Assembly: GCA_029258835.1 (NCBI GenBank)
Contig: JAPDJY010000016.1
Span: 1 to 18,944 of the forward strand
From: Thermoproteota archaeon
GTDB lineage: Archaea; Asgardarchaeota; Jordiarchaeia; Jordiarchaeales; Freyrarchaeaceae
Reading direction: 5' to 3'
DNA length: 18,944 nt
Shown here: positions 7,419 through 16,119 of the stretch, one piece after another
Layout: each line of letters starts with the position of its first letter
How positions within the stretch are numbered: position 1 is the stretch's first letter
Translations under genes and position numbers: made by a program
The notes under the pieces: model-generated
Seen by the model: the letters and a program-made list of their open reading frames with translations, nothing else
The model's database searches: none
Told to the model about the DNA's origin: nothing

Positions 7419-7429
7419 AAAAAAGGGGG
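7419..7429 (-). terminator. Oligo-T archaeal terminator candidate after the membrane-protein gene
   Basis: Minus strand CCCCCTTTTTT about 11 nt after the stop; conserved after the paralog (15771-15782). Confidence 0.5.
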
Positions 7430-7440
7430 TTGTTGGGTGT

Positions 7441-8814
7441 TTACCTCCATGGCCAGTGTTCGAACCCTTCGTATGCTAGCAGGTAGAAGATTAATACCGT
7501 TAAGATCCAAGCAAACATCACAGCACTTCCTACGAGCTCAGCTACCCCTTCGAAGTATAAGGCGTACACTATGGCGTTCCATATGGCGCCTGTGGAGCCG
7601 AACATCAGCCCTATTCCAAGGTAGAACATGTAGAGTGTTTCGAGCCCGCTCACCGGTAGCAGTAAATTGGCTCCTGTGAACGGGATGGCTAACGCCGGGT
7701 TCACCAAGAAAATGTAGAACAGACCTGTCCCGATCAGGAACGAGACCACGACGAAGGCTATGCTACCCTTTATGCCCCACCTTGACCATGGCCACATTCC
7801 GAAGGTTAGCTGTCCTGCAAGCAGGGTTACTAACGGGAAGGCCACGTACGCGGCGATGTTTCCATGGTTCATACACGGGAACGTGAACAGGAATGGTACT
7901 TCTCCTGGAATCAGCACGGTCTGCAGCGAAGGACCTATTATTGCGGAGAGTATCCCCCATAGGGCGACCCCGATGATGACCGCCAGCGTGAGGTTTACTA
8001 TTCCTCTCTTAGGCTGAGGCATGTTCGGGAACGGAGCGACCACGCCCATGATCGCTCCCCCGACGATTATGCTTAACAGCAAGGAGTTGTAGAAGTCATA
8101 CGGCTCGGTTGGTGTTAGCGTTATCATGGGTACGCCGAAGAGGTACTGTGCCCAAGCGGTCCCAACAGGGTTTGACCAGAGAAGGTAGGTTACTATGCCA
8201 CGTATCACGAAGGCAAGCACCCAAGATATTGAAGCGTATACTGCCCCTCTAACCACGGGGTGCGTCTCCGGCCTCTTTGGGATGAAGGGCCAGTAGGTGA
8301 ACAGTGAAGCCCACAGGGGGAATACTAGGAAGGCGCAAGTGCCAAGGATGATCATCTCGTAGCCCTTCCAGTGAAGTATGATTGCCAGAATGTACCAGGT
8401 TATGAATGCTAAGATCATTGATAATGCCATCACTATGATCCCGTACCAGGGCTGCTTTATCCTCGGAGGCGTGAACGGCCTCGCCAGCAGCCCTATGGTG
8501 ACGAACCATGCGATGCAGAAGATGAAGTATGGAACCCAGTCGACGATGTAGCCGAGGGGGTACAGCTCCATGTTCATAGCGTTACTAAGCGATAGGACTA
8601 AGCCCATTTCAGGGGCTCCCACCGCCATGCCAAGCATCGTGGCGATAAACGCGTTCATTCGAACCATCTTGGTGGCGAGTCCCCAGACCGGGTGGATGAA
8701 AATGTATAGTGTAATGTATGCTAGGATGAAGATTGTGAAGAATGACAGGAACCCCTCCCAAGGCTGCTTGAACTTTGGTGCAGCCTCTGCCTCCTGACCT
8801 GCTACCTCTGTCAT
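7441..8814 (-). CDS. Multi-pass membrane protein, putative amine/amino-acid transporter built from (W)PF..KQP..G repeats
   Basis: 457 aa with about 11-12 hydrophobic segments; recurring motifs KQPWEG, RPF..KQPWYG, WPF..HPVVRG, APF..PQPKRG, WPW..WGIKG and FEHWPW; RBS GGAGGT. The transporter role is inference. Confidence 0.85.
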   Translation of the reverse strand: MTEVAGQEAEAAPKFKQPWEGFLSFFTIFILAYITLYIFIHPVWGLATKMVRMNAFIATMLGMAVGAPEMGLVLSLSNAMNMELYPLGYIVDWVPYFIFCIAWFVTIGLLARPFTPPRIKQPWYGIIVMALSMILAFITWYILAIILHWKGYEMIILGTCAFLVFPLWASLFTYWPFIPKRPETHPVVRGAVYASISWVLAFVIRGIVTYLLWSNPVGTAWAQYLFGVPMITLTPTEPYDFYNSLLLSIIVGGAIMGVVAPFPNMPQPKRGIVNLTLAVIIGVALWGILSAIIGPSLQTVLIPGEVPFLFTFPCMNHGNIAAYVAFPLVTLLAGQLTFGMWPWSRWGIKGSIAFVVVSFLIGTGLFYIFLVNPALAIPFTGANLLLPVSGLETLYMFYLGIGLMFGSTGAIWNAIVYALYFEGVAELVGSAVMFAWILTVLIFYLLAYEGFEHWPWR

Positions 8815-11351: not shown

Positions 11352-13928
11352 TTAAGGGGGAGATTTCTTTCTCAGTTTGGCGGCTGCTGCGGTGATTACT
11401 ATCAGGATCACTGTGGCGGCTCCGCCGACCATGAGGTGGAAGCTGACTGAGTAGCTGACCATTAGCTGCGATAACCCCTGTAACGTTATAAGGGAGTATG
11501 CTAACTGGAGTAGCTCCTGCTGGCGTAGCTGATAGATCATGTTCATGGTCTCGTTAAGCGTGTACACTTGCACCTCGCTTTCCGACTCTTTATGTGCGGC
11601 GATGTCATCCGGGTAGAAGTAGTCCTGGTGTAGTTTATCGCTACCATAGTAGTTGAGGAGCTGGTCTGCGTAGTGCTTTGAGGATGGGCTGTTGCTTTCA
11701 CCGTATGGTAGCACGCTGAAGGAGGTGACGTTTCCGGGCTCAAGGTGGACAACCATTATGTAGGACGAGCCTCCCGTACACTTCCACTCACCCGTCTCGT
11801 TGCTAAAGGTGTACCATCTCGGGTTTAGGCAGCCGAAGGGCTCCCCGTCGGTTCCGTTTAGTCCAACCCTGTAGCTTCCCCTTTCAACGTAGTGGACGTT
11901 CGCCCAGTAGACGCTGACGTTCCCGTAAACCTCAAGCATGTAGTTCACCGTGGCGTTAAGCGTGTCGACAGCCTGCTGCTGGGTTAGGCTCCCGATGTAC
12001 TCCTCGAAGTCCCATATGCTTGCCTCCTCGCCGTAAACCTCCCTGCACTCGTCCATCAGCCTCTGCACCCACAGCTGGAATATCGTCATAGCAGTCTGGT
12101 TTGTCGCCTTCATGTCCCAAGCCTTCAACGTTGCTATCGCGTCGTTAAGCGCCTTACTTCCTCCGGAGACGCTGTCAGGCAGCTTGCCTATACAGTCCGA
12201 TGCAAGGTAGCTGACTGACACGTCAACAGCCATGCTGAGCATCTCATCCATCGTGACGCTTGAATCCGACTCCAGCATTTTGAAGAGCATGTACCCCCTG
12301 GTGTACTTGCTCATCCCCCTGTACCCTTCCCACCCCACCAGGTACCTGGGGAACGGGTTTGCCTCGTGTGTCTCCGACACGTTGTTCGGCTGCACGGTGA
12401 TGTTCCATGATGGAATGTTGCAGTTCTGCATCCACCCGCTTCCAGGGTTCTCCTGCTGCGGCAGCTCGCTGAAAGGTATTATCTCCCCCCAGTCTGTTTC
12501 CGGGGTCCACCCCGGAACCGCCGCAGTCCAGTTGTAAGTGTCGTTCCTCTCAGGGCACACCCCACTCCAAACGTAGAACGTCTCGTTGTACACGTCGGCG
12601 AACATCACGTTGAATATCGCCGTACCCTGCTTAGCCCACGCCTTCTTAAACTGGGTTAGGTTTTGAGCCGTGTCAACAAGGTACCACTGCTCGAACCCTA
12701 CAGCGTTCTTCCTCGTACTGTAGTTTACTGCTAGCGCCCAGTGATCCGTCGTGTTAATCGTCAGGAGAACGCCGTGGTGGGTGTAGTAGACGGGTATCTC
12801 CTGGTAGAGCACTCCAATCCCGCTGATCTTCATCGGCACGGTTATATCCTCCTGCTCCAGGGGGCGCCATGTCCCATTGTAGAGGTACATCGTGTTATCG
12901 TCGCTAAGCCTCTCTATCCAAACATCCCCAACGTCGATCTGGTTCACGGTCTCGGACCATGCGATGTACTCGTTGTGCCCCATCCCTATGAAGGGTAACC
13001 CGAAGAAGATGACTCCTATAACGTTTAGCTCTGGTAAGCCGTCATGGGCGGGAGCCATGAGGTGAGCCTGATACCACTGGAGGACGCCGTCCCATGGCAG
13101 GTGCGGGTTCATCCCGTACATGGGGTGCCCGGTGGCTGACCGGTCGGCGTTAACCACCCACTGGTTGCTGCCAACGTAGCCTACCGCTGGTCCAGGCGAC
13201 GAGGTGGATGACGTGCCAGCTGGCTGATACTTGCTGAGGTACCCCTCAACACCCATCAACTCTATTTCTTCTTCAGCAACTATCCACTCCTCAAGCACCC
13301 TACTTGAGAAGAGCAGGTTTATCAGCTTCCCCATCGACGCCACGTCCGTCGGCTTTACCGGCGCGTTCTCCTTTATCCATGAGGGTAGCTCGTCCCAGTG
13401 GGTGTAAATGTAGTAGTTTATCCCCGCTGTGAAGGGCTCGATCATAACCCTCCTCATGGTCTCATTTACCTTCAGGTAGTCTTCCTCGCTTGCTGGAACC
13501 CCCAGCTCTCTTAGCAGCACGTCGCTCTCAATGTTGCTCAGCGAAGGATACCACGTGTTATTATAGTTGAAGGGTCCAAACGTCTTCGACAGGCTTCCGG
13601 TAGCCGTAAGGAAGTTTAGCATTACCGTTTCTATTGCGTCTTCTGCCTGGGCGTAGCCGAAGCCGAAGAATGCAGCCTCCTGACTACTAGCATTAATATG
13701 AGGAACACCAAAGACATCCCTAACGATGGTAACGCTCTCGCCGTCCACACGGATTTGAACAGCCTTACCGGTTAAATCGTTAAAACCACGCTGCCCAGCG
13801 ACTGTAAGGGTGGCTGGGGCAGTGTAGCTGGTAAACGCCGCTTGCAGGGCTAAGCCGCCTACGCTGGCTACAAGGAGGACGCTGACGATAGCTACCAAGC
13901 ACGCCAGCTTACCATCACGCATTCCCAT
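11352..13928 (-). CDS. Penicillin acylase family (peptidase S45) Ntn-hydrolase, secreted and membrane-anchored
   Basis: IVRDVFGVPHI...FGFGYAQAED (alpha subunit); spacer, then GSNQWVV with the beta-1 catalytic Ser (codon 13167-13169); NPHLPW; QNCN. N-terminal signal peptide, many sequons, C-terminal TM helix plus KLRKK. Confidence 0.93.
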   Translation of the reverse strand: MGMRDGKLACLVAIVSVLLVASVGGLALQAAFTSYTAPATLTVAGQRGFNDLTGKAVQIRVDGESVTIVRDVFGVPHINASSQEAAFFGFGYAQAEDAIETVMLNFLTATGSLSKTFGPFNYNNTWYPSLSNIESDVLLRELGVPASEEDYLKVNETMRRVMIEPFTAGINYYIYTHWDELPSWIKENAPVKPTDVASMGKLINLLFSSRVLEEWIVAEEEIELMGVEGYLSKYQPAGTSSTSSPGPAVGYVGSNQWVVNADRSATGHPMYGMNPHLPWDGVLQWYQAHLMAPAHDGLPELNVIGVIFFGLPFIGMGHNEYIAWSETVNQIDVGDVWIERLSDDNTMYLYNGTWRPLEQEDITVPMKISGIGVLYQEIPVYYTHHGVLLTINTTDHWALAVNYSTRKNAVGFEQWYLVDTAQNLTQFKKAWAKQGTAIFNVMFADVYNETFYVWSGVCPERNDTYNWTAAVPGWTPETDWGEIIPFSELPQQENPGSGWMQNCNIPSWNITVQPNNVSETHEANPFPRYLVGWEGYRGMSKYTRGYMLFKMLESDSSVTMDEMLSMAVDVSVSYLASDCIGKLPDSVSGGSKALNDAIATLKAWDMKATNQTAMTIFQLWVQRLMDECREVYGEEASIWDFEEYIGSLTQQQAVDTLNATVNYMLEVYGNVSVYWANVHYVERGSYRVGLNGTDGEPFGCLNPRWYTFSNETGEWKCTGGSSYIMVVHLEPGNVTSFSVLPYGESNSPSSKHYADQLLNYYGSDKLHQDYFYPDDIAAHKESESEVQVYTLNETMNMIYQLRQQELLQLAYSLITLQGLSQLMVSYSVSFHLMVGGAATVILIVITAAAAKLRKKSPP

Positions 13929-13929
13929 C

Positions 13930-14183
13930 TCCTCTCTCCTTCCTCGCTTAAGAGGAATCTGATACCGCTAACACTTATTAACTTTAACTTTTTTAAAAAA
14001 CTTTCAGGTCATAAACTTAACCGAGTCCTCTTAACCTTTCCATCCCTTACCTTAAAAACTTAAATTTTAATTCCTTTTTGATTTATTTTTTAATTAAGTG
14101 GTTTTTCACAACTTTCTTCCGAGAAATGTTGGAAAAGGTAAAGGATTATTCAGTTAAAGGTTTCGGAAGGAGGTAGAGGAAGG
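13930..14183. promoter_or_regulatory. AT-rich divergent promoter region (acylase leftwards, transporter paralog rightwards)
   Basis: Very AT-rich with multiple TTTAA/TTAAAAA tracts between divergently oriented starts at 13928 and 14184. The 14138-14186 part is homologous to the upstream region of the intact paralog. Confidence 0.55.
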
Positions 14184-15759
14184 ATGGGGTTCACGCTTGA
14201 TAGGCTTTTATGGGTAAATGTGGAGATTTTGGTCTGTCAAGCGTTTCCCCATCATCGAGGCGTACGCCTCTAATGGGGCTTTCGGGGTAACCCCCGGAGC
14301 CCCACATCCGAAGACTCCACCCATAAGCCACCCCGTGGCCAAACCAGCACCCCAAACACCCACCAAATATTTAACTGCTTCGCAAGGCGAAGGAAGTGAG
14401 GAGGCAGGGGTTGCACCGAAGTTCAAGCGGCCCTGGAGGGTTTCTGTCCTTCATAACGGTTTTCATCATAACATACCTTACATTGCAGTTGTTCATCCAC
14501 CCGGTTTGGGGTCTCGTCACCAAGATGATCCGGATGAACGCCTTCACCGCGTCGATGCTTGCGATGGCAGCGGGATCCCCTGAGCTAGGCCTTCTCATGT
14601 CGATTAACAGCGCCGTATACATGGAGCCGTACCCCCTCGGCTACATCGTCGACTGGGTTCCATACTTCATCTTCTGCATCGCATGGTTCGTCACCATAGG
14701 ACTGCCGGCGAGGCCGTTCACGCCTCCGAGGATAAAGCAGCCTTGGGCCGGCATCACGGTGCTAGCCCTATCAATGATCCTAGCATTCGCAACATGGTAC
14801 ATTCTCGCAATCGCACTCCACTAGAAAGGCTACGAGATGATCATACTAGGCACCAGCGGCTTCCTGGTGTTCCCAATATGGGTCACATTGTTCAACTACT
14901 GACCCTTCATACCCAAGAAGCTAGACGTGCACCCGGTGGTTAGAGGGCCATCTACGCCTCAATATCATGGGCACTCGCCTTCGCGATACGTGGAGCAGTC
15001 ACCTACCTTCTCTGGTCAAACCCGATAGGGGCAGCCTAGGCACGGTACTTCCTTGGAATCCCCCTGCTAACGTTAATGCCCACCGAGCCATACGACTCCT
15101 ACAACTCCCTGCTACTATCCATAATCGTCGGGGCAGTAATCATGAGTGTGGTTGCACCGTTCCCGACGATGCCGTAGCCCAAGAGAGGCGCAGTAAACCT
15201 CACATTATCAATCCTGATCGGGGTAGCCTTATGGGGAATCCTCACCGTAATCCTGGCCCCATCATCCCAAACCATCATGGTCTCGGAAACGGTCTCGGGA
15301 ACGGTGCTATACCTGTTCACGTTCCCCTGCGTAAACTACGGAAACATAGTCGCATACTTAGCCTTCCCACTTGTAACCCTACTTGCAGGACAGCTAACCT
15401 TCGGAATGTGGCCATGGTCAAGATGGGCATAAAAGGAAACATAGCACTGGTAGCCGTATCATTCCTGATCGGGACAGGTCTGTTCTACATTTTCATGGTG
15501 AACCCCGGGCTAGCAGTCCCCTTCACAGGAGCCAACCTACTGCTACCGGTGAGCGGGCTCGAAACACTCTACATGTTCTACCTTGGAATAGGGCTGATGT
15601 TCGGCTCCACAGGCGCCATATGGAACGCCATGGTCTACGCCCTCTACTTCGAAGATGGCAGAACTCGTAGGGCAGTCCACACTGTTCTCCTGGATGCTAA
15701 CAACACTAATCTTCTACCTGCTAGCATACGAAGGGTTCGAACACTGGCCATGGAGGTAA
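14184..15759 (+). pseudogene. Pseudogenised inverted paralog of the 7441-8814 membrane protein
   Basis: Original start ATG 14184 (GGAGGTAGAGGAAGGATG vs GGAGGTTGAGGATGGATG in the intact copy) is separated from the body by a ~190-nt insertion. Nonsense codons at 14822, 14900, 15037 and 15175; frameshifts at ~14435, ~14946, ~15426 and ~15654. Ends FEHWPWR-TAA (15757-15759). Confidence 0.93.
14187..14376 (-). mobile_element. Non-autonomous mini-element probably derived from an IS607/IS200-IS605 tnpB 3' end (omega-RNA region)
   Basis: Absent from the paralog; removing it restores ATG-GCT-TCG-CAA (MASQGEGSEEAGVAPKFK). Minus strand 14313-14191 reads LRMWGSGGYPESP...AYQA*, like the post-RuvC tail of archaeal TnpB. 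Dense stems. Exact ends are uncertain by 1-2 nt. Confidence 0.65.
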
Positions 15760-16119
15760 ACACCCAACAACCCCCCTTTTTTAAACCCAGTTTTTAAACC
15801 CGGCATCACCCTTCACCAGCCCATCAACCGTGAATGAACGTTCACGGCGAAATGTACAAGTGTGTGTCCATGCTCCAGCCTCCCAGCTTGAGGGCGAAGC
15901 TCAGGTTAAGCGTTAAACGCTAGCTCGCATAGCTATTCGTTAACCTCCGGCATCCGGCTTGTACATACGTGATACGTGACCCCTCCGATGCCAACCCTTA
16001 AAGCCACCACTCCTCTTTCCTCATCGTCGGAGGGCGTCTTGTAGCTCGCCTACGCCCACCGCCGCCTGTTAGGTGACCCCGGTGAGGAGTGGGAAGCACC
16101 GCAACAATCAACCCTAATG

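Follow-up and report, generated by a model that had tools for sequence, protein, structure and literature searches.

A multi-copy, gene-less element of probable IS607 type that retains a candidate TnpB guide-RNA scaffold in an Asgard archaeon

Here, we characterized an insert that follows the start codon of a decayed membrane-protein gene in an 18,944-nt stretch of an Asgard archaeal genome (the window). The best explanation, which we hold at a probability of about 85%, is that the insert is a non-autonomous, IS607-type derivative of an element encoding an HTH protein and TnpB, which would move in trans and may provide a guide RNA for use by TnpB. The identity of the element is close to certain, whereas the chance that copies of the window type make a working guide RNA falls slightly short of even. 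An earlier note on this DNA, made from the letters of the window, had described a miniature element without protein genes that stems from the tnpB 3′ end and carries an omega-RNA. This core reading is upheld by the further copies in the genome, by 80–93% identity to a parent element and by a covarying RNA structure.

Boundaries, copies and the decayed host gene

The start ATG of the host gene is directly followed by a segment that is missing from the intact paralog (7441–8814, minus strand) and from the orthologous genes in three genomes of the same family, in keeping with the insertion proposed earlier. When the 190 nt first delimited as the insert were used as a query against the archaeon's own 2.72-Mb assembly, ~23 full-length copies with 81–95% identity were found, along with seven further sites that match only bases 1–127 of the query. 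With ~23 copies and none of the sequence in the orthologs, a single-copy segment native to the 5′ end of the gene, which the earlier note had named as the alternative outcome, was not what was found. Alignment of all copies with their flanks placed the ends of the repeat at window positions 14186 (GGGGTTCACG...) and 14388 (...CTTCGCAAGGC), and the flanks beyond both ends were unrelated among the ~23 copies. Contigs of four sediment or vent metagenomes, in which the repeat reaches ~100x vs. ~4x for the flanks, branch at 14185–14188, 14313, and 14388–14389. Alignment and branch points thus replace the coordinates originally given for the insert, 14187–14376, with 14186–14388, the earlier right boundary being 12 nt short. 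Since these 12 nt (GCTTCGCAAGGC, read as ASQG) occur in all copies, they are element-borne; the claim that excision restores MASQGEG is therefore wrong, and excision of 14187–14376, which leaves 12 nt of the element in the gene, was dropped.

The amount of inserted DNA was deduced from the copy at C40:1630–1828, which interrupts a gene for a P1B-type ATPase. The motif EYYAELLPHEK is kept in seven orthologs and paralogs of that gene, and it is restored only if GCC (Ala) stays in the host. As the orthologs keep this Ala codon, GCC is host DNA and the inserted DNA amounts to 200 bp; removal of the whole 203-nt unit deletes the conserved codon in the ATPase copy and was rejected. Excision of 200 bp from the window gives the empty site ...GGAGGTAGAGGAAGG ATG GCG AAG GAA G..., reading M-A-K-E where the orthologs have M-A-E-K, so the element went in directly after the start codon and ahead of codon 2 of the membrane-protein paralog, near the place given in the earlier note. 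Among contigs of the four metagenomes none joins across the insert, and no empty site was seen for the window locus; two short internal "joints" in such contigs, with 23-nt sides, come from other copies. The predicted empty site was also sought in JGI metagenome contigs with an exact pattern (flank, N{0,8}, flank), which gave 0 matches. The features of the locus are listed in Table 1.

Table 1. Coordinates of the host gene, the repeat unit and its predicted or observed parts in the window.
Feature	Position	Strand	Details
Host gene	14184..15797	+	Decayed paralog of the 457-aa membrane-protein gene 7441–8814 (minus); start ATG 14184–14186
Predicted guide template	14166..14185	-	Guide 5′-AUCCUUCCUCUACCUCC.. 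if transcribed past the right end; predicted from the TnpB/omega-RNA mechanism (PMC10055086; 10.1101/2023.11.20.567912)
Full repeat unit	14186..14388	-	203 nt, of which 200 bp are inserted DNA; multi-copy alignment, contig branch points, ATPase empty site
Putative core dinucleotide, two copies	14186–14187 and 14386–14387		GG; CC on the element's own strand
Right end, candidate omega-RNA scaffold common to the 1.42-kb elements	14186..14313	-	Three structural domains
Decayed TnpB C-terminus	within 14186..14313	-	~40 codons; old stop TGA 14191–14193
Long-range closing helix, 3′ domain	14193..14244	-	ACGCUUGA (template 14237–14244) pairs with UCAAGCGU (template 14193–14200)
Hairpin, helix 3	14257..14270	-	GAGGCGUACGCCUC, lengthened by CAUY/GAUG
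Two-tier hairpin, helices 1 and 2	14275..14303	-	GGGGCUCC-GGGGG-UUA-CCCC-GAAAGCCCC
Left-end part	14314..14385	-	Shorter than, but homologous to, the long elements' left end
Left-end hairpin	14327–14340	-	GGCCAC/GUGGCU; within the left-end part
Copy-specific arm	within 14314..14385	-	GGCUUAUGGGUGGAG; can pair with the right end
TATA-like box	14367..14374	-	TTAAATAT; 14 nt inside the left end; candidate omega-RNA promoter
Target-derived triplet (TAM-like)	14386..14388	-	GCC; host gene reads GGC, part of ATG|GCG

The condition of the host gene requires a correction: it is a pseudogene, which was already dead at insertion or has since decayed, and not a gene broken by the insert alone. Its start ATG and the conserved APKFKQPW block stand in different frames, 2 nt are deleted near 14432–14440, at least three more frameshifts are present (at least four in all), and two nonsense codons are both of TGG (Trp) origin. 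One of the two contains position 14823, where a related strain in one metagenome has G for A; if the stop in the window is TAG, this G would turn it back into TGG (Trp). BHB-type introns were considered as the source of the frame breaks and rejected, the breaks being 1–2-nt indels and TGG-to-stop changes with no inserted segment. Pfam gave no match for the membrane-protein family, whose closest relatives in public genomes lie in Candidatus Jordarchaeum/Jordarchaeia MAGs, which places the host archaeon in this Asgard group. The dead gene (14396–15797, plus) and the inverted paralog (7425–8814, minus) are 80% identical and share exact tracts of 94, 72, and 69 nt, which suggests gene conversion between them.

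Several of the other copies also lie in or near genes. The split ATPase gene (C40:1219–2578; L014) is of the heavy-metal P-type (DKTGTLT, VGDGVNDAP), and removal of 200 bp gives a 388-codon open frame. At C24:25910–26109 a copy splits a PIN/VapC-like ORF, where excision of 200 bp yields ..RLGIAVPIPLK.. in a 151-codon frame. In the region C2:74657–75002 (L007:1353–1698) a copy lies 70 nt downstream of a tRNA-Met gene and directly adjoins the T-arm-like GGTTCGAACCC, which was not called by ARAGORN. Two more short gene-less families have the same left end, GCC|TTGCGAAGCAGT, with sites at C6 (~74819), C33 (~10804), C81:1761, C82 (~4138), C9:8622; C4:53493, C27:30201, C66, C86, C20:22203, and C31:28682. 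One of them is ~265 nt long, with 91–97% identity among four copies, and has the GGGG..CCCC two-tier hairpin; the other is ~213 nt long, and its copy at C27:30294–30409 is a weak match of the scaffold model described below. A junction 19-mer of the mini-element gave only two chance matches in species-representative genomes, both bacterial, and among the genomes searched the copy family of the window insert was not found outside its own genome. With 81–95% identity among the copies, their burst is not a recent one.

Parent element and the right end as a candidate omega-RNA scaffold

At each of the seven partially matching sites lies a copy of a 1.42-kb, parent-like element, which shares the first 127 nt of the mini-element and has a related other end; the BLASTN search suggested in the earlier note thus returned both a multi-copy family and seven parent-like HTH-TnpB elements. 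On the strand opposite to window plus, the long element encodes a 58-aa HTH protein (ORF 1) and an overlapping 394-aa TnpB (ORF 2). The 58-aa protein, of HTH_17/MerR/excisionase type, matches residues 2–49 of the IS607 transposase model, and therefore corresponds to the N-terminal DNA-binding domain of IS607 TnpA only, without the recombinase catalytic domain. TnpB is intact in one of the five long copies that are not cut by a contig end. This copy, on contig C9, scores 119.1 bits against NF040570 (cutoff 100), 63 bits against PF07282 and 33 bits against PF01385; its FDIN, ILEDL, and LDRD motifs align with the RuvC D-E-D catalytic residues of ISDra2 TnpB, and the zinc finger CPLC..CKKC is present. 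In this genome the 58-aa HTH protein upstream of TnpB lies at L021:355–531 (contig C9), and the same arrangement was also matched in L044, L045, L052, L054, L055, L059, L064, and L065. At least eight such HTH-TnpB loci occur in Desulfurococcaceae, Baldrarchaeota, Bathyarchaeia, Geocrenenecus, Jordarchaeia, and Archaeoglobaceae, and the pair looks like a conserved architecture rather than a stub left at random by a transposase.

In the long elements, the stop codon of tnpB is found 5 nt before the right end, which makes the common 127 nt the final 127 nt of the parent. This part is 80–93% identical to the 3′ end/right end of the seven HTH-TnpB elements of the same genome and 91% identical to the long copy with the intact TnpB, so that the similarity to a tnpB 3′ end on which the earlier claim depended is found seven times over. 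The window copy has no TnpB gene. What is left on the minus strand is the decayed tail recognized earlier, LRMWGSG, then GVTPKAPLEAYASMMGKRLTDQN, then ..YQA*, in three frames, where the parent TnpB tail reads LNLRMWGSGVTPKVPSEAYASMTGKRLTDQNHLPIKTYQA*. At the opposite end, 14314–14388 of the mini-element and the left end of the parent both start with GCCTTG.G.AGC.GT and have a T/G-rich stretch in common. The mini-element is most readily explained as an internal-deletion derivative in which the 127-nt right end survives together with ~73 nt from the left.

The right end is strongly structured. Its 128-nt part in the window folds with −50.8 kcal/mol (z = −3.76), and none of 200 shuffles was as good. 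Both hairpins named in the earlier note are present, GAGGCGTACGCCTC at 14257–14270 and GGGGCTTTCGGGGTAACCCCCGGAGCCCC at 14275–14303. The consensus of 22 own-genome copies gives the same three-domain fold, in which the closing helix is lengthened by GGGG/CCCC up to the last bases of the scaffold, and one-sided changes among these copies are G-U on the tnpB-sense strand. A covariance model was built from the own-genome copies and matched the 3′ end of TnpB homologues in 23 foreign loci, from Desulfurococcaceae, Baldrarchaeota, Archaeoglobaceae, Nitrososphaeria, Brockarchaeota, Jordarchaeia, and Bathyarchaeia. Compensatory changes were seen in 19 of 28 pairs, a level reached by 0 of 500 shuffles, with slid controls at 5–8; as covariation was counted on the alignment fitted to the model, pairing is somewhat inflated, but the margin is large. 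All nine pairs of helix 3 showed compensatory changes, and helix 5, the closing helix, had both-sided changes in 7 of 8 pairs with 93.5% of cells paired. In the long elements the structure occupies the 3′ end of tnpB, overlapping with the ORF, and extends to the right end of the transposon, as expected of an omega-RNA scaffold. Rfam 15 gave no match at gathering score, and searches at E up to 10 gave chance-level matches only; a tRNA scan of the window found none. From the occurrence of the 127 nt at TnpB 3′ ends in many archaeal lineages, together with the strong covariation, we identify this right end as the scaffold of the omega-RNA that belongs to the element's TnpB.

It is nevertheless conceivable, if rather unlikely, that the mini-element is an inert deletion remnant, in which both ends were kept for mobilization in trans, the right end serving the transposase, with no functional omega-RNA. 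Consistent with such decay, the TnpB coding remainder is frame-broken, the copies have diverged to 81–95% identity, and comparison of the ends with those of intact IS607 copies revealed no autonomous partner. The long stem of the earlier note also bears on this point. It does appear in the MFE fold of the window copy, but it is not a feature of the family, being part of the MFE fold in only ~9 of 23 copies and missing from the consensus. It joins the 5′ arm, which is specific to the mini-element, to the right end, competing with the covarying closing helix; judging from the MFE folds of many copies, this competition could impair folding of the scaffold in gene-less copies. Against an inert remnant, the 127 nt that were kept contain all five covarying helices, with the deletion break just upstream of these in every copy, one-sided substitutions preserve G-U pairing on the tnpB-sense strand, and CAGTTAAA in the left end is unchanged in all 23 copies. 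Moreover, the copies score 125–169 bits against the structure model (159 bits for the window copy). A derivative that has retained its guide-RNA scaffold is thus our preferred reading.

Target site and transposase family

Across 34 left-end junctions, related families included, GCC is present at 32 and is preceded by C or T at 31, never by G; the right end finishes in CC. The target of the element is accordingly YGCC, with CC at both junctions. Neither terminal inverted repeats nor a target-site duplication were found in the flanks of the 23 copies or at the ATPase empty site, which confirms the absence of target duplication reported earlier. For this reason the term "MITE" fits the element only loosely. 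As in IS607 elements, one dinucleotide is common to the two junctions and the target, GCC being retained in the ATPase empty site, and by analogy crossover may take place within CC, although the sequence by itself fits insertion after GCC too.

The genome contains at least six intact IS607 serine tnpA genes, whereas only two Y1 tnpA genes (PF01797 matches) were found in this 94.7%-complete assembly, both broken by stop codons. The element has no serine-recombinase TnpA of its own, and no autonomous partner with the same ends was found. BLAST of the element ends against the intact IS607 copies of the genome gave no significant similarity, and the mobilizing enzyme is therefore not pinned to any of them; a short GCGAAG..TAAC-like motif is common to the element and the intact IS607 elements. 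Judging from the junction dinucleotides, the IS607-type HTH and the census of transposase genes, the element probably belongs to the IS607 family rather than to IS605. The earlier assignment to IS607/IS605 would therefore stand in its first part (CC junctions, HTH, intact serine tnpA) and not in its second.

The principal competitor on this point would be an IS200/IS605-type PATE, moved as ssDNA by a Y1 (HUH) TnpA acting on subterminal hairpins and inserting 3′ of a short motif. The absence of target-site duplications and terminal inverted repeats, the hairpins at both ends and the insertion beside a fixed short motif are what one would expect of such an element, and TnpB-only elements are typical of IS605 (PMC10055086). 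We nonetheless consider it very unlikely, given the stops in both Y1 tnpA genes as opposed to the intact serine tnpA genes, the element-borne HTH, which is the N-terminal domain of IS607 TnpA, and CC at both junctions, an IS607 hallmark (10.1101/2023.11.20.567912). That the segment instead belongs to the membrane-protein gene as its native 5′ leader or coding sequence, or is a small-RNA gene of the host, is refuted by the copy census and the ortholog comparison and retains next to no probability: a frame through the insert is open from ATG 14218 and joins the APKFK frame, but 23 copies lie in unrelated contexts, some interrupting other genes including the P-type ATPase gene, the sequence is absent from the paralog and three orthologs, and it is homologous to a TnpB 3′ end.

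Proposed mechanism and relation to known elements

If the element is, as we favor, a non-autonomous IS607-type HTH-TnpB derivative, a TnpA of the serine-recombinase type would have mobilized its copies in trans. An RNA of ~150 nt may be transcribed from the TTAAAT box of the left end and would comprise a short leader and the scaffold, plus a guide taken from the flanking DNA; this conserved box is the one feature that points to the "self-promoted" omega-RNA of the earlier note. The guide predicted for the window copy would be antisense to the host gene over its ribosome-binding and start region. The intact C9 TnpB might load RNA from the mini-element and cut empty sites that combine YGCC with a match to the guide, and cutting of the uninterrupted site would favor retention of the insertion, along the lines of the Meers et al. 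homing model (PMC10055086). The neighboring gene on the other side of the insert encodes an 858-aa protein of the penicillin-amidase family (11352–13928, minus). Its start is 257 nt away from the element's right end and its direction is that of the predicted omega-RNA transcript; read-through from the element could extend into it.

The closest experimental counterpart is CboIS607, an IStron of Clostridium botulinum, for which a GG core, the TAM TGGG and a scaffold ending in UCGG were shown experimentally (Zedaveinyte et al., bioRxiv 10.1101/2023.11.20.567912). Like IS607 elements in general (Chen et al., 2018; PMC6188088), the element described here lacks inverted repeats and target duplication and has the same dinucleotide at both junctions. 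As in CboIS607, the target/TAM ends in the core dinucleotide (YGCC here, TGGG there), the scaffold end and the TAM differ at position −3 (..ACCCC vs. GCC here; TCGG vs. TGGG there), the omega-RNA would overlap with the last part of tnpB and reach as far as the right end, and the HTH resembles the N-terminus of TnpA. In contrast to CboIS607, the parent carries only the 58-aa HTH domain without a recombinase catalytic domain, the core on the tnpB strand is CC and not GG, an intron is lacking, the host belongs to the Asgard archaea, and the window copy is without any gene.

Gene-less elements that keep an omega-RNA are already known as a kind (Meers et al., 2023; PMC10055086). PATEs, or palindrome-associated transposable elements, are gene-less derivatives of IS200/IS605 (Dyall-Smith et al., 2011; PMC3119063) that "often encode omega-RNAs" for use by TnpB in trans (Meers et al., 2023; PMC10055086), and an equivalent has been shown for IStrons (10.1101/2023.11.20.567912). 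Like PATEs, the mini-element is short, multi-copy and protein-less, and it keeps both ends and the guide-RNA scaffold while transposase and nuclease are encoded elsewhere. Unlike PATEs, its ends and junction dinucleotides point to serine-recombinase (IS607) and not Y1/HUH chemistry, and its left end contains a conserved TATA-like box. With classical MITEs it shares a size of ~200 bp, a high copy number, the non-coding nature and the origin by internal deletion of a larger element, but it differs from them by the lack of terminal inverted repeats and target-site duplication.

Accordingly, knowledge of how such elements work is unchanged by the window element. What it adds is a well-delimited Asgard example of a gene-less, probably IS607-type element with only its ends and a candidate TnpB guide-RNA scaffold, which comes with a structure model ready for use, a target/TAM deduced as YGCC and a precisely defined empty site. 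A bolder and quite unlikely proposal is that the ~23 copies and the two sister families constitute dispersed, promoter-equipped guide-RNA genes that program the single intact TnpB in trans, each guarding its own insertion through cleavage of the allele that lacks it, with the HTH-only partner acting as a regulator and not being a dead transposase stub. If this were true, copies at gene starts, in toxin genes or in the ATPase gene would be small gene drives against restored or incoming intact alleles. As an aid to annotation, the ~30 copies and the two sister families account for many of the "orphan structured RNAs" and split genes in this genome.
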